From Eledone cirrhosa (Eukaryota), in assembly GCA_964016885.1 (NCBI GenBank), contig OZ024757.1, forward strand, positions 24,490,001 to 24,554,000: a DNA stretch of 64,000 nucleotides, given 5' to 3'. Numbering within the stretch: the first letter of the stretch is position 1; each line of letters begins with the position of its first letter. The notes beneath the pieces were generated by a model that did no database searches, had not been told where the DNA came from, and saw only the letters and a list, made by a program, of their open reading frames with translations. Shown in pieces: positions 3,801 through 64,000 of the stretch. The position numbers and the translations under genes were made by a program.

Positions 3801-3889
3801 TATAAACATACTAGCGTGGAAGATAGCCGTTAAACGATGATTATGATGATATATATATGTATATATATATATATATATATACATACATA

Positions 3890-6800
3890 CAGGGTCGCGC
3901 TAACGAGGTTGTAGAAATGCTTGAACGTAAGGAGGTCGATGTTTGTTGTATTCAAGAGACCAGGTGGAGGGGTGGGTCTGCTAGGTTCATTGAGGGTAAA
4001 AAACGATGTTATAAGCTTTTCTGGGTGGGAAACGACGATGGGCTGGGTGGAGTAGGAATCATGGTAGCAGAAAAGTGGGCAGATAAGATAATAGACGTAA
4101 ATAGAGTGAACGACAGAATAATTAAAATACGACTTGTCCTCAATAGAACTACGGTGACAGTAATATCTGCGTACGCACCCCAATCCGGACTGCCCGGCAC
4201 TATAAAAGACAGATTCTATGAGACACTGATGCTAACTCCCTCCCAAATATCCGACAGTGACTATATAATTATCGCAGGCGACCTAAATGGTCACGTTGGA
4301 CAACATTGTGACGGCTACGACGAAATCCATGGAGGCTATGGGTTTGGTACTAGAAATGAGGAAGGCTCCAGAATCCTGGAATTCTGTGATGCAAATAACC
4401 TAACTATCTGTAACACTAACTTAAAAAAACGTGACAATCACCTGATCACCTATAGATCCGGGGAACACACAAGCCAGGTAGATTATATCCTTACCAGAAG
4501 ACGTGACAGAGTGTCTGTTGTAAACACTAAATCCCTCCCCCATGAAGAATGCACCTCCCAACATAGACTGATAATTAGCGACCTCATAGTCAGGACGAGA
4601 CGTACTCGACAGCAGAAGAGGACTATCCTCAGGAGAAAAATATGGAAGCTAAAGGACCCCACAGCCAGGAATAAATTTCAAAGCATATTACTTGATGCTT
4701 TCGACAGTAAGGAAGAACATTTAGAGTCGGACAATATAGAGGGAGAGTGGGAATTTCTGAAAGCAAAACTGCTGTTGGCGACAGACGAAGTCTGTGGCTG
4801 GAGCAGGCCTGTAGGCAGGAGGAGAGTAACATGGTGGTGGAACAGTAAGGTGGAGGGGTCAATTAAGGCCAAAAAGCAGGCTTGGAAAGTATGGCGGGAT
4901 GGGGGAAGTAGAGAAGACTATCAAGTGGCCAGGAGGGAAGCTAGGAGAGAAGTGTACTTAGCAAGAAGGGAAGCTGAGGAAAGAAAGTTCAAGCATGTTC
5001 TACAACGCGATGACCAAAAACGTGAGGTGTTCAGGATTGCTAGGCAATGCGTCAAGGAAAACCGTGATATTGTCGGGGAGAAGTGTGTACTAAACGACGA
5101 TGGCACACTTGCCATCACTGACGCTGATAAGAAGGTAGCTTGGAAGTGTCACTATGAAAGGCTACTAAATGAGGAGAATAAATGGGAGAAAGACAGTCTC
5201 CCCCATATCGACCCAATAGAGGGACCAGCAGTGTTAGTCGAGGGGAGTATAATAAGTAAGGCAATCAAGGATATGAAGACGGGTAAGGCGGCTGGGCCTT
5301 CGGAAATAGTTGCTGAGATGCTGAAGGCATCTGGCACGGTGGGACACACCATGGTCACCCGCATAGTTAACCAAGTCGTACAGAATGGGGTTGTTCCGAA
5401 GGACTGGCATAGCAGCATCATCGTTAACTGTTATAAGGGTAAAGGAGACGCCCTAGATAGGAGTAACTATAGAGGCATTAAATTAATCGACCAGGTCATG
5501 AAGGTCACGGAAAAAGTAATAGCGCAACTAATCAGAGAGAGAATTGACCTAGATGAAATGCAGTTCGGGTTTGTGTCAGGCAAAAGTACCACAGACGCTC
5601 TTTTCATAGTACGACAACTACAGGAGAAGTACCTAACTAAAGGTAAACCCCTCTACTTAGCTTTTGTCGACTTGGAGAAAGCCTTCGACAGAGTCCCCCG
5701 CTCCATTATCTGGTGGGCTCTTAGAAAACTAGGCGTTGACGAATGGCTTGTGAGGGCTATACAAGCCATGTATAAAGAAACAGTCAGCAAGGTTAGAATT
5801 AACAACGAATATAGTGAAGAGTTTAGCGTAAAAGTTGGCGTCCATCAGGGCTCTGTTCTCAGCCCACTACTATTTATTATTGCCCTTCAGGCTATAACAG
5901 AGGAGTTCAAGACAGGCTGCCCATGGGAACTCCTATACGCAGACGACCTGACACTCATAGCGGAATCAATGGCCGAGCTGGAGAAGAAATTCCAAACATG
6001 GAAGCACGGCCTAGAGTCAAAAGGACTTAAAATTAACCTGGCTAAGACCAAAGTTCTAGTTTGTAGGAAAGAAAACAAGGCGGCGGTCCCTTCTGGGAAA
6101 TGGTCGTGCTCGGTGTGTAGGGAAGGCGTAGGTAGAAACTCCATTTTATGTCCTAAATGCAAAGTATGGGTGCATAAAAGATGTAGTGGGATCACAGGTA
6201 AGCTAACTAAGAACATAGATTTTACATGTGGCCGGTGCTCTGGTGCAATAAGTAGCAGCAAGTGCCCACAAAATACTAGCTCTTTCAATTGCGCAGAGGG
6301 TTCTATAGAAATAGTGGACAGCTTCCGTTACCTGGGCGATAAAATCAGCAGTGGGGGAGGGTGCTCTGAAAGTACTGTAGCTAGAGTCAGAACTGGTTGG
6401 AAAAAGTTCAGAGAGCTTATACCACTATTAGCTGCTAAAGGGTTCTCACTAAAAATGAAAGGCAGGTTGTACGATGCCTGCATACGAACAGCAATGCTGC
6501 ATGGCAGTGAGACCTGGGCATTGTGTGCAGAGGATATACGCAGACTAGAGAGGAACGAAGCTTGCATGCTCCGCTGGATGTGTAACAGTAATATACGTGA
6601 ACGGCAAAGCATAAACGAACTAAGGAAAAAATTAGAGATAAGAGGGATCAGATGTTGTTTACTCGAGAGAAGGCTACGTTGGTATGGACACGTGATGCGC
6701 ATGAAAGTCGATAGCTGTATAACAAAGTGCAGGGCAATAAAGATAGACGGTAGTCACGGAATAGGCAGACCTAGAAAAACCTGGGACGAGCTGATAAACT

Positions 6801-6892
6801 CCGACATCACACACTTACACCTCTCCAAGACAATGTCACTGGACCGAGACCTTTGGCGGTACTCAGTAACAGAGAAGACCCGCCTTACCTAG
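3890..6892 (+). CDS. RTE ORF: AP endonuclease + reverse transcriptase + PHD-like C4HC3 finger
   Basis: About 1000 aa without stops. The ORF-track start at 3857 lies in flanking (TA)n and is not the real start. Confidence 0.88.
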
Positions 6893-23394: not shown

Positions 23395-26389
23395 TCATCA
23401 TCATCATCAACGTTTAACGTCCGTGTTCCACGCTTGCATGGGTTTGGACGGGGGTAGTCCCACTTGAGGCAAGAGTGGTTGTCTTGCTCGCATAGGACTG
23501 TCTGGCAGGTTTTCTACAGTTGGATGCCCTTCCTAACACCAACCACATTTACAGTGTGGGTCTGGGAGGTTTTTACCGTGTTGCCTACACGGCCACATTA
23601 CAGCGTGGACTGTGTGTTTTTTTGTCGTGACACCTAGACGATCTCATTTGTTTCGGCCTGGATGGCGCGGCACCAACATAACTTTACATAGAACGGGGTG
23701 GTGTGGATGGGGTGGGGGTGGTGGTGGTGGGACGGGGTGTATTTTGTTAGAGATGCCTACTGGCTGGAGTAGGTTTTACTATATATTTAGGTAAGGCGGG
23801 TCTTCTCTGTTACTGAGTACCGCCAAAGGTCTCGGTCCAGTGACATTGTCTTGGAGAGGTGTAAGTGTGTGATGTCGGAGTTTATCAGCTCGTCCCAGGT
23901 TTTTCTAGGTCTGCCTATTCCGTGACTACCGTCTATCTTTATTGCCCTGCACTTTGTTATACAGCTATCGACTTTCATGCGCATCACGTGTCCATACCAA
24001 CGTAGCCTTCTCTCGAGTAAACAATATCTGATCCCTCTTATCTCTAATTTTTTCCTTAGTTCGTTTATGCTTTGCCGTTCACGTATATTACTGTTACACA
24101 TCCAGCGGAGCATGCAAGCTTCGTTCCTCTCTAGTCTGCGTATATCCTCTGCACACAATGCCCAGGTCTCACTGCCATGCAGCATTGCTGTTCGTATGCA
24201 GGCATCGTACAACCTGCCTTTCATTTTTAGGGAGAACCCTTTAGCAGCTAATAGTGGTATAAGCTCTCTGAACTTTTTCCAACCAGTTCTGACTCTAGCT
24301 ACAGTACTTTCAGAGCACCCTCGTCTGCGTATAGGAGTTCCCATGGGCAGCCTGTCTTGAACTCCTCTGTTATAGCCTGAAGGGCAATAATAAATAGTAG
24401 GGGGCTGAGAACAGAGCCCTGATGGACGCCAACTTTTACGCTAAACTCTTCACTATATTCGTTGTTAATTCTAACCTTGCTGACTGTTTCTTTATACATG
24501 GCTTGTATAGCCCTCGCAAGCCATTCGTCAATGCCTAGTTTTCTAAGAGCCCACCAGATAATGGAGCGGAGGACTCTGTCGAAGGCTTTCTCCAAGTCGA
24601 CAAAAGCTAAGTAGAGGGGTTTACCTTTAGCTAGGTACTTCTCCTGTAGTTGTCGTACTATGAAAAGAGCGTCTGTGGTACTTTTGCCTGACACAAACCC
24701 GAACTGCATTTCATCTAGGTCAATTCTCTCTCTGATTAGTTGCGCTATTACTTTTTCCGTGACCTTCATGACCTGGTCGATTAATTTAATGCCTCTATAG
24801 TTACTCCTATCTAGGGCGTCTCCTTTACCCTTATAACAGTTAACGATGATGCTGCTATGCCAGTCCTTCGGAACAACCCCATTCTGTACGACTTGGTTAA
24901 CTATGCGGGTGACCATGGTGTGTCCCACCGTGCCAGATGCCTTCAGCATCTCAGCAACTATTTCCGAAGGCCCAGCCGCCTTACCCGTCTTCATATCCTT
25001 GATTGCCTTACTTATTATACTCCCCTCGACTAACACTGCTGGTCCCTCTATTGGGTCGATATGGGGGAGACTGTCTTTCTCCCATTTATTCTCCTCATTT
25101 AGTAGCCTTTCATAGTGACACTTCCAAGCTACCTTCTTATCAGCGTCGGTGATGGCAAGTGTGCCATCGTCGTTTAGTACACACTTCTCCCCGACAATAT
25201 CACGGTTTTCCTTGACGCATTGCCTAGCAATCCTGAACACCTCACCGTTTTGGTCATCGCGTTGTAGAACATGCTTGAACTTTCTTTCCTCAGCTTCCCT
25301 TCTTGCTAAGTACACTTGTCTCCTAGCTTCCCTCCTGGCCACTTGATAGTCTTCTCTACTTCCCCCATCCCGCCATACTTTCCAAGCCTGCTTTTTGGCC
25401 TTAATTGACCCCTCCACCTTACTGTTCCACCACCATGTTACTCTCCTCCTGCCTACAGGCCTGCTCCAGCCACAGACTTCGTCTGTCGCCAACAGCAGGT
25501 TTGCTTTCAGAAATTCCCACTCTCCCTTTTTCTTGTCCGACTCTAAATGTTCTTCCTTACTGTCGAAAGCACCAAGTAATATGCTTTGAAATTTATTCCT
25601 GGCTGTGGGGTCCTTTAGCTTCCATATTTTTCTCCTGAGGATAGTCCTCTTCTGCTGTCGAGTACGTCTCGTCCTGACTATGAGGTCGCTAATTATCAGT
25701 CTATGTTGGGAGGTGCATTCTTCATGGGGGAGGGATTTAGTGTTTACAACAGACACTCTGTCACGTCTTCTGGTAAGGATATAATCTACCTGGCTTGTGT
25801 GTTCCCCGGATCTATAGGTGATCAGGTGATTGTCACGTTTTTTGAAGTTAGTGTTACAGATAGTTAGGTTATTTGCATCACAGAATTCCAGGATTCTGGA
25901 GCCTTCCTCATTTCTAGTACCAAACCCATAGCCTCCATGGATTTCGTCGTAGCCGTCACAATGTTGTCCAACGTGACCATTTAGGTCGCCTGCAATAATT
26001 ATATAGTCACTGTCGGATATTTGGGAGGTAGTTAGCATCAGTGTCTCATAGAATCTGTCTTTTATAGTGCCGGGCAGTCCGGATTGGGGTGCGTACGCAG
26101 ATATTACTGTCACCGTAGTTCTATTGAGGACAAGTCGTATTTTAATTATTCTGTCGTTCACTCTATTTACGTCTATTATCTTATCTGCCCACTTTTCTGC
26201 TACCATGATTCCTACTCCACCCAGCCCATCGTCGTTTCCCACCCAGAAAAGCTTATAACATCGTTTTTTACCCTCAATGAACCTAGCAGACCCACCCCTC
26301 CACCTGGTCTCTTGAATACAACAAACATCGACCTCCTTACGTTCAAGCATTTCTACAACCTCGTTAGCGCGACCCTTTAGGGTGCCTAC

Positions 26390-26392
<3 letters not shown>
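23395..26392 (-). mobile_element. RTE LINE copy 2, near-identical to 3890-7295, with 412-bp internal deletion
   Basis: ORFs 24299-26350 and 23787-24344; junction YAD|EG at about 24321; (GAT)n tail at 23395. Confidence 0.95.
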
Positions 26393-26437
<45 letters not shown>

Positions 26438-53589: not shown

Positions 53590-54300
53590 ACTTTCTCCCT
53601 CCCTCCCACCAATCACAGAGACCCTGAAAAAGTTGTGAGTACTGCCCCTCTCCACACTAGTCTCAGAAGCCCAGAAAAGGCCATGGGGACTGTCTTACCC
53701 TTAACCCAAACTAGTCTCAGAGGCACTGAAAAAGCCCATGACCATTGTCCGTTCTTCTCATCAGTTTCAGGGACCCTAAAAAGTGTCATGGGTACTTCCC
53801 CACCCTCAACTCATTCTCAGTGACCCCTAGAAAAAAAGAGAGATGGTCGCTGTCCCTCCCTCTCACTAGACTCAGAGACCTTGAAACGGCTATGAGCACT
53901 GCCCCACCACCACTCCACTATTCTCAGACGTCCTAAAAAAGGAATGGGCACTGTCCCTCCCCCACTAGTCTCAGAGGCTATGAAAAAGGCCATGGGTAGA
54001 GCCTCACCCTCACACGAGTCTCAGTGATCCTAGAAAAACGCAATGGGAACTACCCTCCTTCACATTAGTCTCAGAGGCTCTGCAAAGGTCATGAGAACTT
54101 CCCTTCCTCCCATCAATCTCAGTGACCCTTAGAAAAAAAAGTGTTATGGCCACTGTCCCTCCCTCCCACCAGTATGAGACCTCGAAAAGAGTTATGAGCA
54201 CTGCTCCACCTTCACACCAGTCCCAGAGGGGCTGAAAAAGGTTGTGTACTTCCCTTACTTCCCACCAGTTTCGGTGACCCCCTAAAAAAAAAAAGGGGGC
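53590..54300. repeat. Diverged minisatellite, about 55-60-bp period
   Basis: Recurrent CTAGTCTCAGAG...AAAAAGGCCATG. Confidence 0.6.
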
Positions 54301-54350
54301 ATGTGGAGGGCCCTTCCCTCCTTCATTAAAACCATAAATCCGATACTCAC

Positions 54351-54558
54351 GCTGCCGAACTCTAAAGTCAACAATTTGGTATTTCTTTGCTGCTGGGTCT
54401 TTGCGTGGGTCATAGCCAAACCGAACCCACAAGCTGCGCCATGGCCCTGTGATGAAGTAGTAGGCAATGAGGGGGAGCACATACTTCAAGGTGTCACGGC
54501 GGCAGTCGGTGGCCCCACAGATTCCATTCCTTGACCAAATTGGTTTCTCGTTGAACAA
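54351..54558 (-). CDS. GTF3C5: GTF3C5 internal exon C (Tau95 domain core)
   Basis: GACAG| acceptor, C|GTGAGT donor, 208 nt, phase 0-1. LFNEKPIWSRN...LPLIAYYFITGPWRSLWVRFGYDPRKDP...YQIVDFR is diagnostic of TFIIIC63/Tau95. Confidence 0.96.
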
Positions 54559-56840
54559 CTGTCAGAAGAAAAGGGAACAGCAACACCTTAAGACATACAC
54601 ATAAATAGAGGGATTACACACACATATATACAGATACACATACATATATATACACACACACATATCTATATATAAAGTTTGCGGTGCTGAAACCGAGGAA
54701 ACTACAAATCAGGGAAGTACTCTCTGCATGGGAAAAAGCAGAGTAGGTATAGAGGAAGGTAAAAGCCTTGCCAAATACAAGCTGAAACCACTAGGTGCTA
54801 CCCTCAGGTTTTTATCCTCTTTTTCTCTCTCTCTCTCTCTCTATATATATCATCATTTCATTTTACATCCGCTTTTTCCCTACTTGCAAGGGTGGGATGG
54901 GAACTGATGCTGGCTTGATTTCTACAGCTGGATGCCCTTCCTAACACCAACCTTATTTACAGTGAGTGCTGGGTGCTTTTTTGCCGTGGCACCTCCACGA
55001 CCACTTTACAGTGGAATGATAGGGACACCAGTCCCTATCATCTCATTTCTACAGCTGAGTAAACTGGAGCAATGTGAAATAAAGTGCCTTGCTCAAGGGA
55101 AAAACACATCACCCGGTCTGAGAATTGAACTCACAACCTTTTGATTGCAAGGCCAATGCTCTAACCACTAAGCCATGTGCCTCCATATATATATATATAA
55201 TCAAAGTTTAGCAAATAGGAAAAAGTTTTAAAATAAATTTTAAAAAGTTCACTGTACCTGCTATAATTACCCTTACCGGGTATATATATATGCACACATA
55301 TATTTATATATACCCACACACAAACATATATATATATATATATATATTACTCAGCTGTAGAAATGAGATGATAGGGACTGGGGTCCCTATCATTCCACTG
55401 CAAAGTGGTCGTGGAGGTGCCACGGCAAAAAAAGCACCCAGCACTCACTGTAAATGAGGTTGGTGTTAGGAAGGGCATCCAGCTGTAGAAATCAAGCCAG
55501 AATCAGTTGCCGTCCCACCCTTGCAAGCAGGAAAAAAGCGGACGTAAAATGAAATGAAAATGAAATATATATATATATATGTGTGTGTGTGTATATAAAT
55601 AGGGAGACACAAAGCATGCTTTGTTAACAAATGGCTAGCGAATTTGAATGGAAGGAAACATGGGTAGCATGTTGGTGTAATGGTAGCACATTGGTCCGGC
55701 AAACCAAAGATGTGGGTTTGTGTCCCATGTACATCGATACTCATCCTTTTTTTCCATTCAGAGGGTTTTTTAAAATCCCAACTAACAGACTAATTCTATG
55801 TAGTCAAATACGGCGTAAACATATATTACTACACATATATATATCATCATCACCGTTTTACGTCCGTTCTTCCACGCTAGCATGGGTTAGACGGGTTGTC
55901 CTGTTGTGGGCAGTGTCCGGTCGGCTGACCTTGTCTTGCTCATACGGGAACTGATTCTGGCTTGATTTCTTCTGTTGGATGCCCTTCCTAACACCAACCT
56001 CATTTAGTGGTGGGTGCTTTTTTTCCGTGGCACCTCCACGTCCACTTTACAGTGTGGGCTGGGTGCTTTTCTGCCGTGGCACCTACATGTCCACTTTACA
56101 GTGTGGGCTGGGTGCTTTTCTGCCGTGGCACCTACACGTCCACTTTTTTACAGTGTGGACTGGGTGCTTTTTTGCCGTGGCACCTACACGACCACTTTAC
56201 AGTGGAATGATAGGGCTGGGGTCCTATCATCTCATTTCTACAGCTGAGTAAACTGGAGCAATGTGAAATAAAGTGTCTTGCTCAAGGAAACAACACATCA
56301 CCCGGTCTGAGAATTGAACTCACAACCTTTCGATTAAGCCATATATATATATCCAATGTCAGTTATCCTGTAACAACAAGGAAAGTTGTATATTGAAGTA
56401 GGAGGGGAGGTGCATGCATATGGGGAGGAATCTATATATTAGAAGGGAAAGGAGGCAGGGATTTATATTGGGAGAGGGAGAGAGGAAGACATGTATAGAG
56501 AAAGGAGAGGGAAGAGTCTATTATTGAATAGGGGAGCAGAAAAACGGATAACAATTAAACTCAATCCCAGACCTCATTCACTTACAAAATGCAGTGGAAT
56601 TCGTGAAATTGGACCAAGGAAACAAGGTTTCCATTGGTCTTTCCATTGCTGATACTATCTACTGGTCGCGGCTCCTGGTAGAAAGAGTAATGTGAAATAA
56701 AGTGTCTTGCTCAAGGATGCTTGGCCCAGGAATCGAATTCACAACCTCACAATTTCATACCCAATTCTCTAACCACTAAGCCATGCCCCTTCACTAAAAC
56801 AGACAAAAACCCTGCAAATATTAGGGAAATTTGGACTAAC

Positions 56841-58015: not shown

Positions 58016-58942
58016 ATGGAACAAACTACCTGCATCAGTTGTTAGCTGTCGAGACACTGCATCCTTTAAAACTTCCATGGAACAAACTACCTGCATCAGT
58101 TGTTAGCTGTCGAGACACTGCATCCTTTAAAACCTCCATGGAACAAACTACCTGCATCAGTTGTTAGCTGTCGTGACACTGCATCCTTTAAAACCTCCAT
58201 GGAACAAACTACCTGCATCAGTTGTTAGCTGTCGAGACACTACATCCTTTAAAACTTCCATGGAACAAACTACCTGCATCAGTTGTTAGCTGTCGAGACA
58301 CTGCATCCTTTAAAACCTCCATGGAACAAACTACCTGCATCAGTTGTTAGCTGTCGTGACACTGCATCCTTTAAAACTTCCATGGAACAAACTACCTGCA
58401 TCAGTTGTTAGCTGTCGAGACACTGCATCCTTTAAAACCTCCATGGAACAAACTACCTGCATCAGTTGTTAGCTGTCGAGACACTGCATCCTTTAAAACC
58501 TCCATGGAACAAACTCCCTGCAACAGTTGTTAGCTGTCAGGACACTGCATCCTTTAACACCTCCATGGAACAAACTCCCTGCAACAGTTGTTAGCTGTCA
58601 GGACACTGCAATCTTTAACACCTCCATGGAACAAACTCCCTGCAACAGTTGTTAGCTGTCAGGACACTGCATCCTTTAACACCTCCATGGAACAAACTAC
58701 CTGCAACAGTTATTAGCTGTCAGGACATTGCATCCTTCAAAACTTCCATGCTTCCTGAAATTCGCCAACACTAAACCTGATATTCCCCCTCCATACACAC
58801 AAGCATGTATGTCTGTATGTATATCATGACCCATACACTGTTCACTTTCCTGACATTTGTACATTAATCTATGTACTATGCATGCACTTTTGATAAGGTG
58901 TAGTGCACCTGAGCACAGTACACAATAATTTTCATTATTATT
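58016..58942 (+). repeat. 61-bp minisatellite (about 12 units) from a CR1/L2-like ORF2 end, followed by its 3' UTR
   Basis: Unit reads WNKLPASVVSCRDTASFKTS; continues MLPEIRQH*, UTR and (ATT)n tail; unamplified relative at 48866-49108. Confidence 0.85.
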
Positions 58943-59639: not shown

Positions 59640-60110
59640 AATGGGTAAACTACGGATAGATGTCGTTGCGAATCTGTTGGTGAGTTCCATCTGTACCTGC
59701 TATCCTGCCGACTTAATGCAGTGCAGTTCCTTCGACACTCAGCTCTGCATGACAAAATCCGAAGGAGCATCAATGTGTCTGGATTCCCATTACAACTGGA
59801 GACAGCTGGCTTTGATTGTGGCAATGGTAGGTGCCCAGATGGGATAACTCCCTTCCCATTCGGGAGAGGTAAATACTTAATCTGGGATGCCACATCCTGC
59901 GCCTTGTTCTTCAGCTCCAACTTGTCTTTTCAGCCACAAACTCAGGTATTGCCACCTGTAGGGCAGAGGAGCGGAAAGTTGCCAAATACCAGGGTTTGAC
60001 AGACTGCTTCCCTTTCATGCCAGTTGCTGTTGAGACTTCCGGTGTCCTAGGCACCCAAACTACCATTTTCCTTCGCAAAATCGGAAAAACAGCAGCTTGC
60101 CTAAGGAGCT
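59640..60110 (+). mobile_element. CRE-like (restriction-like endonuclease) non-LTR retrotransposon C-terminal relic
   Basis: LSC..RHSALHDKIRR...GRCPDGIT..PFGRGKYLIWDAT...AEERKVAKY...FMPVAVETSGVLG. Confidence 0.7.
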
Positions 60111-61044
60111 TTTTGTCATAGCCCCAGCATTACCACCTTACTGAGTGGACTGGGTGCTTTTACCATGGCACCAGCACTACCACCTTACTGAGTGGACTGG
60201 GTGCTTTTACCATGGCACCAGCACTACCACCTTACTGAGTGGACTGGGTGCTTTTACCATGGCACCAGCACTACCACCTTACTGAGTGGACTGGGTGCTT
60301 TTACCATGGCACCAGCACTACCACCTTACTGAGTGGACTGGGTGCTTTTACCATGGCACCAGCACTACCACCTTACTGAGTGGACTGGGTGCTTTTACCA
60401 TGGCACCAGCACTACCACCTTACTGAGTGGACTGGGTGCTTTTACCATGGCACCAGCACTACCACCTTACTGAGTGGACTGGGTGCTTTTACCATGGCAC
60501 CAGCACTATCACTTTACTGAGTGGACTGGGTGCTTTTACCAGCACTACCACCTTATAGAAAAGATTGGCTGTTTTTGTTGCAACTCCACCACTACCACCT
60601 TACAGTGTGACCTGGGAGTTTTTATCATGGCACCAACACTTCCTAAAGTTACAATATTTTTAAGAGTTTTCCTCGAGAAGTCAGCTTTTTTTTTTCTTTC
60701 TTTCATAATAACCACGAAAAGTGGCTGAAATGTGGTTCCTCAGACCTCAGAGAATCGCAACATTGAGAGATCACAGCTCTGATATTACGGGCAGGCGGTT
60801 AGAATGTCTCAAGAATCACTGGACAGATTTTACAGGCAAAACCAAGTGGCAGCAGACCCTGAGGTAGACCCTGAGCAGGAAGGTCGTGTTTGGAGATGAT
60901 TGCTTCTAACAGGTCCCGCTGGAAGGAGTGTTTGAGGACTCTGCCCCATAATCTTCCCAGGAATGAATGGGCAAAGAAGAAAAAGAAGAAATAGTAGCTA
61001 AATTGTCCCTCAAAATATATTTTAAAAAAATACGAAATCCTTAC

Positions 61045-61314
61045 CTGTTCCAATTAGATGACTTGGACGTTGATCTTGGGGGTTTACAAAGCCAGAACGA
61101 TGTTGCATTTCTGATCTGTAAAGGTATTCCATGGGTGTGTCCATTCGGGAGAAGATAATGGGTGGCAGGAATAAGGGTACATCAACCTTCAGCCAGTCTT
61201 TAACATCTTCTGGTGACTTAACAACCAATTTATCAAATATACTGGAAAATATCTTGGTTTCACTATCACCAGTCGAATGCGATATCATTGGTAAATACTG
61301 AAAGTCTACCATGC
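61045..61314 (-). CDS. GTF3C5: GTF3C5 (TFIIIC subunit 5) internal exon A
   Basis: TTACAG|GC acceptor, AG|GTAAGG donor, 270 nt, phase 1-1. Encodes GMVDFQYLPM...VPLFLPPIIFSRMDTPMEYLYRSEMQHR...LIGT, matching recalled vertebrate GMSDFQYL...LYIPPPIFSRLDAPVDYFYRPETQHR. Confidence 0.93.
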
Positions 61315-61626
61315 CTGTAAAAATAGTTCCCATTGCAATAGATCAAATCAAAATAAATCATTTTATCAATCATAATATGGCTAGACTTTCAACTGCTGAG
61401 GCCCTAAGCTATGATATTTGAGGACCTTCTCTAAAAAATATTATTATTTTTTATATTAACAGTAATGATAAAGAATTTATATATTTATATATATATATAT
61501 ACAGGGTGTCACAAAAAATGTATACACACTTTGATTACCTGTACAGGCAATATTTATTAGAATGTTGTTCAAGTGTGTATACATTTTTTTGGCTGGGGAG
61601 AGGGGGCACCCTGTATATATATATAT

Positions 61627-61775
61627 ATATTTATTAAAATAACAGATTAAAATTTAAGTAAAGAATCGCTGCTTTCACCCTTAACCGTTAAGGGTGAAAG
61701 CAGCGATTCTTTGCTTAAACTTTAATCTGTTATTTTAATAAATATTTGCTCTACGGTTCTTATATATTTGATATA
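61627..61775. mobile_element. Fold-back element folded inside a hammerhead-like stem II, family P5
   Basis: Arms 61627-61685/61687-61745; related piece 21020-21087(-) reads CAGAAGA-TCCCGTTAAGGGT-GAAAGCAGTGATTC. Confidence 0.6.
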
Positions 61776-62165
61776 TATTTATCCTTATATATATATATAT
61801 ATAATTTTTGATGATTTAGTGTCAAAAACTAAAAACTAAAGATAAAATAAAAATATATTTTAAAAATGAGACTCCCAAGTGTGTGTGCCCCTAAGCTTTA
61901 GTTTATTTGATTTATAGGTAAGTCCAGCACTGACAAAGGGGACTTTCACCAGCTGAGGCCCTAAGCTATACGAAATTTGAGGCCCTTCCTCTAAAAAAAA
62001 TGAAGGTAAAATTTTTTTTTATAAATGTACATGATTATTATTTTTTATATTAATATTAATGAAAGCATCTGAAACTATAACGATCTCCAGGAGACAGCCA
62101 ATGAGTGGGAATTGTCCTTGTGATTGCCTCTTCCCCGTTTTCTGTTTCCTATATTTCTCCCAGGT

Positions 62166-62198
<33 letters not shown>

Positions 62199-62208
<10 letters not shown>

Positions 62209-62618
62209 AAAGATGAAATAAAAGATGGTTATAAGAGTTCCATATATTTTATTATACGTATTTCGAATACAAAATGCTCCTGGGACAAAAATTGTGTTCT
62301 CTTCAGATAAAATAAGGCACAATGATATGAGGCATAATAGCACTTGTTTATAGGAAAGTGCTAAGTCTACTTAGCACTTTCCTATAAACAAGTGCTATTA
62401 TGCCTCATATCATTGTGCCTTATTTTATCTGAAGAGAACACAATTTTTGTCCCAGGAGGATTTTGTATTCGAAATACGTATAATAAAATATATGGAACTC
62501 TTATAACCATCTTTTATTTCATCTTTATTGTATATACTCCAGTTCTACCAACTGTCAAATGTTACTTATCTGATATATGCATAGTTTTATTGTTCTACAA
62601 TATTACTCACCTTCTATA
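62199..62618. mobile_element. Palindromic hammerhead-bearing element, family P4
   Basis: 168-bp arms 62199-62366/62369-62536 (2-nt loop, one mismatch), tail to 62618; related fragment at 8090-8205. Confidence 0.8.
62421..62490 (+). ncRNA. Minimal type I hammerhead ribozyme (mirror copy about 62245-62314 on minus)
   Basis: Helix I TATTTTAT/ATAAAATA (perfect); CTGAAGA 62429-62435; helix II GAACACAA/TTGTATTC; GAAA 62471-62474; palindromic helix III ATACGTAT; AUA cleavage after 62482. Confidence 0.8.
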
Positions 62619-62847
62619 TTATATATATATATATATAATGAGGGCCGGCTAAAACATTCATAGGCTGATTACAAAGGAGTGATGTTCATGCTGTGAAATC
62701 TTGCATGCATTAATATTAATTTCAACTCTTCTTATTAATAACAGCAGTGTTTCTTTCCAGGGACTATGTTGAAAAATAAACCTCATTTGCTCATTCCATG
62801 AGAGTATCTTGATCAGCCTATGAACATTTCATTCATATATATATATA

Positions 62848-64000
62848 CAGGGTGGGGCATAAGTTCGGAAGCAAATTTTTGAAATTTGACTTGTAAAAGT
62901 GTTGCAAGTATATCATTAATCTTCTTTTATTTTCAATGTTAAAACATTAGTCTATGTAAACATATTGGACTTTGTTTGAATTTCTTAAAGAAATTGAATA
63001 TATCACCCAATAGAGAAATGATACTCAAACTTCAGTGCACAGGAAGATCAGATTCGGATATTGCAAAGTTACTTTCGGTGGCTAGATCTACTGTTTGGAA
63101 AGCTGTGAAGCATTTTAAAGAGCAAGTTTTGTTGGATAGATCCAGAAGTAGAAAACCTCAAACTAAACAGACTCCAACCATCATCAAAGTCTTTCGAGAA
63201 AGGATAAGAAGCAATCTGAAAAGTTCCATGAGAAAAATGGCAAAAGAGGTCCAAGTAAGGCCTAGGACAATGTGAAGGATCATCAATGATGATTTGGGAG
63301 TGTCTTCCTTCACTCTTCAGAACAGACAAACCTTTTTTTGTAAAGACAAAACAAAAAAAGGCTAGAGAGAAGCAATAATTTGCTTAAAGAAATGAAACGT
63401 GACATGAAAGAGGAAATTGTCTGGTCAGATGAAAAGATTTTCATTGTTGAGCAGACACACAACTGAAGAGAATGACAAGTCATTGGGAAAAACCCATCAA
63501 CAATCAGTGTTGACCAAATATCTGTATTCCATACAATGAAACCAGCTTCTGTTATGGTCTGGGTGGCTGTTTCATTGTCTTGGAAGTCTCCTCTCATTTT
63601 TGTGGAAGAAAGGACAAAAATCAGCTCCCAATCTTACATAGTTGCTTCTGCAACTAATCATTTTGGCAATGATTATCTGTGAACCTCCCAACAGGATGGA
63701 GTTACCTCCCATACAGCAAATGTCACACAAGCTTGGTGCAAAGACCATCTTTCGAGGTTCTAATCAAAAGAAATATGGCCTCCTTGTTCGCCTGATTTGA
63801 ACCCTAAGGACTTTTCAGTATGGTTTATCCTAGAAGATAAAGCCTGTTTAAAAGTCCACAAGACAGTCGATGATTTAAAGGCATCTTTACTGAGCGCTTG
63901 GAGAGAAATTCCCCAACAAATGTTGCATGCTTCGGTGAAAAATGTTCAACTGAGGTTAGAGGCTGTTATTGCTGCACGAGGGTGTCATTTTGAATAAATA
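62848..64000 (+). pseudogene. Decayed DD37D (maT-like) Tc1/mariner transposon
   Basis: TA|CAGGGTG start; HTH (SDIAKLLSVARSTVWK); VWSDEKIF; QQDG...WPPCSPDLNPKD with 37 residues between the last two Asp; several stops. Confidence 0.85.

Follow-up and report, generated by a model that had tools for sequence, protein, structure and literature searches.

An inverted, 5'-truncated copy together with a tail and a bias towards (TA)n microsatellites is described as the typical layout of Penelope-like elements (PLEs), and the way in which PLEs form inverted repeats is named as an open question (PMC8557442). The promoter is located within the pseudo-LTR (pLTR; PMC2377424). In a study on Poseidon of Anolis (PMC11167929), the PLE protein is reported to nick and extend both strands of AT-rich DNA, the tail corresponds to the region between two reverse transcription start sites on the sense RNA, hammerhead cleavage is dispensable for insertion, and RNA reads ending at the hammerhead site were not found. 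For the minimal type I hammerheads found in metazoan PLEs, in vitro cleavage was undetectable with single copies and poor with dimers; pairs on opposite strands, 100–700 bp apart, are already reported in the same paper (PMC4209133).

The locus described here is a hairpin at 62199–62621 of the window, which denotes the whole 64-kb stretch of DNA analysed. It is very probably a PLE stub of two truncated end-repeat copies placed head to head in (TA)n, likely formed when both target strands were nicked and the same short RNA leader was copied twice. The layout of the hairpin is already published (PMC8557442, PMC3846280, PMC4209133). The complex EN+ PLE insertions (PMC8557442, Fig. 2; Adineta Pen2a, PMC3846280) share with it the head-to-head pLTRs, the palindromic joint, the tail on one arm, the microsatellite target and the pLTR hammerhead. 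In contrast to these insertions, the window arms consist of pLTR only and the tail comprises approximately 80–85 nt instead of 30–40 nt; moreover, it is located 5' of the ORF start, whereas the published tail lies inside the ORF. With its one-sided tail and inverted 5'-truncated copy, the locus has the EN+ PLE layout, albeit with a longer tail than published. Poseidon of Anolis (PMC11167929) is similar in its AT-rich target, its two tail-defining end points and a hammerhead left uncut in inserted copies, but the window family has a cysteine-rich linker before the GIY-YIG domain and carries both hammerhead and tail outside the ORF. A PLE-related type I hammerhead is likewise present in animal non-LTR retrozymes (bioRxiv 10.64898/2026.07.22.740005), in their case in head-to-tail tandem units, whereas it is arranged head to head and tied to an autonomous element here. 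A literature search with incomplete journal coverage yielded no paper on this PLE family, and a search for Penelope combined with inverted twin priming returned only off-topic papers. As a typical PLE insertion product, the single locus matters little. Its thousands of copies form a natural data set on PLE inverted-repeat formation, and they bear on the question of hammerhead cutting in vivo.

Structure of the locus and identity of the element

The inverted arms (62199–62366 and 62369–62536) are 168 nt long each, separated by a 2-nt spacer and 99% complementary. Length and spacer are as given in a preliminary description of this DNA, while the perfection claimed there is broken by one mismatch (62276/62459). 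The left arm belongs to a tail-less, 5'-truncated pLTR copy on the minus strand (62199–62370), which reads into (TA)n and includes the 2-nt loop; the loop was assigned to this arm because it matches the sequence 5' of the arm in other copies. The right arm is an inverted pLTR copy on the plus strand (62369–62536), followed on the same strand by approximately 80–85 nt (62537–62621). Since full-length copies contain this segment between the 5' pLTR and the ORF start, which is approximately 75 nt further on, it represents the PLE tail; in those copies, it continues as the 5' leader. The preliminary description included the segment in its range but left it unexplained. A small bulged hairpin is found right behind the pLTR end point (62537–62560), the outer pairs of which are lost in the window copy. 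As described before, the element is embedded in a (TA)n target microsatellite (approx. 62169–62204 on the left, overlapping the end of the tail-less arm, and approx. 62620–62638 on the right), and a target-site duplication is unreadable within these flanks. A microRNA precursor was considered and rejected: the Rfam model MIR6274 reached 62.6 bits against a threshold of 80, with the same score on both strands, and the match reflects the hairpin shape.

The surrounding gene on the minus strand is GTF3C5, in line with the earlier assignment. A Tau95 exon below the Pfam cut-off (61046–61318) is located downstream of the intron, its acceptor approximately 880 nt from the element, and a further Tau95 exon is found at 54280–54561. 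Tau95_N exons are encoded outside the window (C18:24559015–24559215 and 24564353–24564445). Joining the upstream donor to the acceptor at 61318 preserves the reading frame and gives a minus-strand intron of 7.7 kb. One contig of 2077 nt (X4, run type unrecorded) matches the exon only (61045–61316), as a spliced mRNA would.

A genome search with the arm gave 1551 first-look candidates, and among the 40 scored, full-arm matches were 93–100% identical. The nearest other copies are 97% identical in the arm and 98% in the tail. A genome-wide copy search, suggested in the preliminary description, was carried out with a 21-nt pLTR anchor just behind the hammerhead and resulted in 12,036 exact matches belonging to several subfamilies (control: 0). 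Nine of the 28 other loci from the arm search extend upstream into a common body encoding a GIY-YIG domain. One of the loci (L065) comprises a full pLTR-ORF-pLTR unit of approximately 4.2 kb with direct pLTRs (arm plus tail at 1309–1563 and 5227–5479), and L068 is alike. The frames of both encode, in this order, a reverse transcriptase (RT) with YRDD motif, a cysteine-rich linker and GIY-YIG, and are broken by stops and frameshifts. The L065 frame aligns with seven intact full-length homologues of 736–822 amino acids. None of the family's own ORF pieces reached the Pfam cut-off, and GIY-YIG was found in only two of the seven homologues (E approx. 0.01); because of this weak Pfam support, the assignment to PLEs rests on motifs and layout. 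Judged by these, the window arm belongs to an abundant Penelope-like retrotransposon family, whose end repeat (pLTR) it represents in truncated form, and the pseudo-LTR proposed earlier is borne out by copies continuing into the RT and GIY-YIG frame. In the alignment, four conserved cysteines are found before GIY-YIG and a CxxC with histidines after it, in a spacing not fully identical to the published CX2-5CxxC, a motif shared by Nematis. With its cysteine-rich linker, the family may be Neptune-like, a label based on motifs. At another locus (L066, G000:C3:95547600–95554100), a pLTR of the family adjoins, in inverted orientation, an ORF that belongs to another PLE family, and has a small hairpin joint of its own.

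Hammerhead motifs, their conservation and predicted cleavage

Each arm contains one minimal type I hammerhead motif. The plus-strand motif (62421–62490, predicted cut after 62482) is antisense to GTF3C5, and the minus-strand motif (62314–62245, predicted cut after 62253) is read in the direction of the GTF3C5 pre-mRNA. The cut site at 62482, named in the preliminary description, is thus antisense to the gene, and 62253 is the relevant one. The following parts were located on the plus strand: helix I with eight of eight pairs, all of them A-U (62421–62428 with 62483–62490), the CUGAAGA box (62429–62435), helix II (62436–62470), GAAA (62471–62474) and helix III, an 8-nt palindrome (62474–62481). 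A relaxed hammerhead descriptor matched exactly these two sites within the 64 kb analysed, and 100 shuffled sequences, with both strands considered, gave no match, whereas an Rfam scan gave no hammerhead match at E ≤ 1. The descriptor search confirmed a motif on both strands, i.e. one per strand and not two per transcript. Head-to-tail hammerhead repeats are absent at the locus, which harbors the inverted pair only. The core, the long helix II, the G10.1-C11.1 pair and the palindromic helix III are shared with the minimal type I hammerheads described in PMC4209133; the dimer type was correctly recognized earlier. Helix I, with 8 bp of A-U pairs, differs from the 4–5 bp given there.

The predicted fold of the monomer is weak (z 0.2 to 0.9; helices I and II together approx. 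−3.8 kcal/mol). Helix II of the window copy is weakened (−2.7 kcal/mol, compared to −8.9 to −14.7 kcal/mol in most sampled copies). A read-through transcript of both arms is predicted to form a duplex of −270 kcal/mol, in agreement with the long duplex anticipated in the preliminary description.

Of 167 arms that cover the whole motif, 131 have all 12 core nucleotides intact, and the 8-nt palindrome of helix III is perfect in 123 of the 147 arms that could be scored. The subfamilies do not differ from one another at the 12 core positions, while their helix II has been rebuilt from different sequences. The helix III palindrome was retained via a linked double change (in subfamily A, the paired forms occur in 32 and 37 arms, a mismatched form in one), which argues that the motif was under selection in the mobile element; the double change represents one event inherited by many copies. 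Within subfamilies, 31 of 1898 core positions (1.6%) carry substitutions compared to 245 of 11277 non-core positions (2.2%, p = 0.14). After insertion, the cores decay at about the rate of their flanks, nearly neutrally. No A-to-G excess was found in the copies (A-to-G 30/4704, 0.64%; T-to-C 49/5206, 0.94%). Contigs of four runs (kind unrecorded), which mostly represent other copies, showed no A-to-G dominated pattern, and none of them bridges the hairpin.

With regard to cleavage, 11 of 103 truncations outside the start site described below are positioned 10–14 nt before the anchor (predicted cut at 11), where 3.9 were expected. This cluster ranks highest among 127 sliding windows (nominal p = 0.0025, uncorrected). 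It is treated as a lead only, because 10 truncations fall into an interval at the other helix I strand, one of the 11 at the predicted cut (L166) is an anchor artefact, and microhomology in the AT-rich region can mimic the signal. When contigs of run X1 were compared with a related arm, none of the six loose ends listed (of 64) was at the predicted cut.

Inverted pairs across copies and proposed formation of the hairpin

The layout was followed in two samples. The first 100 anchor matches listed represent 98 arms at 80 loci; the first 100 of 150 tail-border matches represent 115 arms at 89 loci, which by design carry at least one tail. Among the 98 anchor-picked arms, 23 head-to-head pairs were found, some of them sharing an arm, of which 19 have one tail, three none and one two. 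The 115 tail-picked arms formed 33 head-to-head pairs, none of them two-tailed. Tail-to-tail pairs were rare (one and two, respectively). Six of the 98 anchors, which come from the initial 51 Mb of a single contig, are part of close pairs with both cores intact; scaled up, this gives a rough estimate of 700 double-core hairpins genome-wide.

The start points of truncated arms accumulate within 3 nt at an initiator-like site (pyrimidine-A), where 23 of 61 such arms begin in one sample and 12 of 93 in the other, compared to approximately 2% expected for a uniform distribution. The same site recurs as fold-back loose ends in seven contigs of run X1, and the window arms start 5 to 9 nt further inwards. 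The junctions suggest that transcription starts at this site. It is possible, though doubtful, that the joints are a genome-wide record of the RNA ends of the element, most of them transcription starts and a minority hammerhead cuts. If true, this would provide in vivo evidence for cleavage by a PLE minimal hammerhead and for reverse transcription of the cut RNA from both target strands.

In the proposed course of events, the enzyme of the element would nick both target strands. One nick would prime at the pLTR end and give rise to the tail-less arm, the other would prime approximately 80 nt further down and give rise to the tail-bearing arm. Both cDNAs would run towards the 5' end of the RNA, stopping in the present case 5 to 9 nt before the common start, and their ends would be joined via the 2-nt microhomology. 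The hammerhead would be cargo of the pLTR, and the stub in the GTF3C5 intron is predicted to be an inert duplex removed with the intron by splicing.

The accumulation of arm starts at one initiator-like site supports the view that both nicked strands were extended on the same short RNA leader. It speaks against the model put forward for rotifer Penelope elements (PMC3846280), in which an antisense template is used for self-priming by fold-back, as both arm types pile up at this sense-strand site; such a fold-back would lead to the same stub and is an unlikely origin, even though palindromic joints are frequent and a 2-bp snap-back would be conceivable for the window joint. The arm lengths of 42 close one-tailed pairs bear on both routes: equal arms (within 6 nt, 11 pairs) are compatible with fold-back, whereas in 22 pairs the tail-less arm exceeds the tail-bearing one and in nine it is the shorter of the two. 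Fold-back of a tail-bearing cDNA cannot yield a longer tail-less arm and fold-back of a tail-less cDNA cannot yield a tail, so that a single folded cDNA does not explain the pairs. One tail per pair rather fits the two start sites on the sense RNA measured in PMC11167929. Many near-symmetric hairpins of similar size might also point to a mobile unit copied as a whole, either MITE-like or retrozyme-like. However, the shared start site accounts for the similar sizes, head-to-tail hammerhead repeats are lacking here, and the joints vary between copies, that of the window being unique (one exact match, and one different joint at one mismatch). This origin is largely refuted and highly improbable.

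Compared to the probable formation as an insertion product, a regulatory role has hardly any probability. According to the preliminary description, the ribozyme would be shut by the antisense arm and could be freed by editing or folding, in this case to cut the GTF3C5 pre-mRNA. The intact core on both strands, the very stable predicted duplex and the helix III palindrome retained through the linked double change would be in accordance with such a switch. However, the antisense arm precedes the ribozyme arm in the GTF3C5 pre-mRNA, which argues against the co-transcriptional unlocking envisaged. Furthermore, each transcript carries one ribozyme of a type requiring dimers, helix II is weakened, the core decays nearly neutrally without being significantly better conserved than its flanks, an A-to-G excess is missing, and the arrangement is a frequent integration product with an estimated 700 or so comparable hairpins. 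Inactivity is explicable without a lock because single minimal hammerheads were not detectably active in vitro (PMC4209133). The lock is real as a prediction, and no function would be needed to explain it. Intronic perfect hairpins of this kind are predicted editing substrates, and the stub may undergo editing like any long intronic hairpin; no function in the GTF3C5 intron is indicated.

The two window arms share four changes, which were found in 0, 0, 4 and 1 of 111 related arms, and differ from each other at one site. A rare source copy or conversion from arm to arm would explain these shared rare changes. General homogenization of arms was not supported: among 36 pairs, the similarity within the pair exceeded that to other copies in 12 cases, equalled it in two and was lower in 22.

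Further elements in and around the GTF3C5 intron

In the host direction, the sequence of the inverted tail matches the 5' splice-site consensus (62605–62613, minus strand) and might serve as a cryptic donor. For part of the GTF3C5 exon (61101–61212), runs X1–X3 contain a second contig of approximately 92% similarity, perhaps derived from a paralogue, a retrocopy or a diverged allele.

A second, shorter hairpin is located in the same intron (61627–61792), with 59-nt arms, an extension of one arm and (TA)n flanks. It belongs to a different young repeat family, the copies of which are 96–100% identical and in several cases have inverted joints of their own. This hairpin contains a hammerhead-like GAAA box without the standard CUGA box; an ORF was searched for, and a link to the family was not established. 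The intron also harbors a decayed transposase with HTH matches, presumably of the Tc1/mariner type, and short TA-flanked elements (62848–64000, 61500–61614 and 62639–62830). Elsewhere in the window, LINE-type endonuclease and RT frames, which we take to be RTE, are encoded at 3827–6892 and 23787–26395, one of them open over 1021 amino acids and the second copy broken. Neighbouring introns contain tandem arrays with units of 61 nt (58030–58740) and 47 nt (60110–60560).
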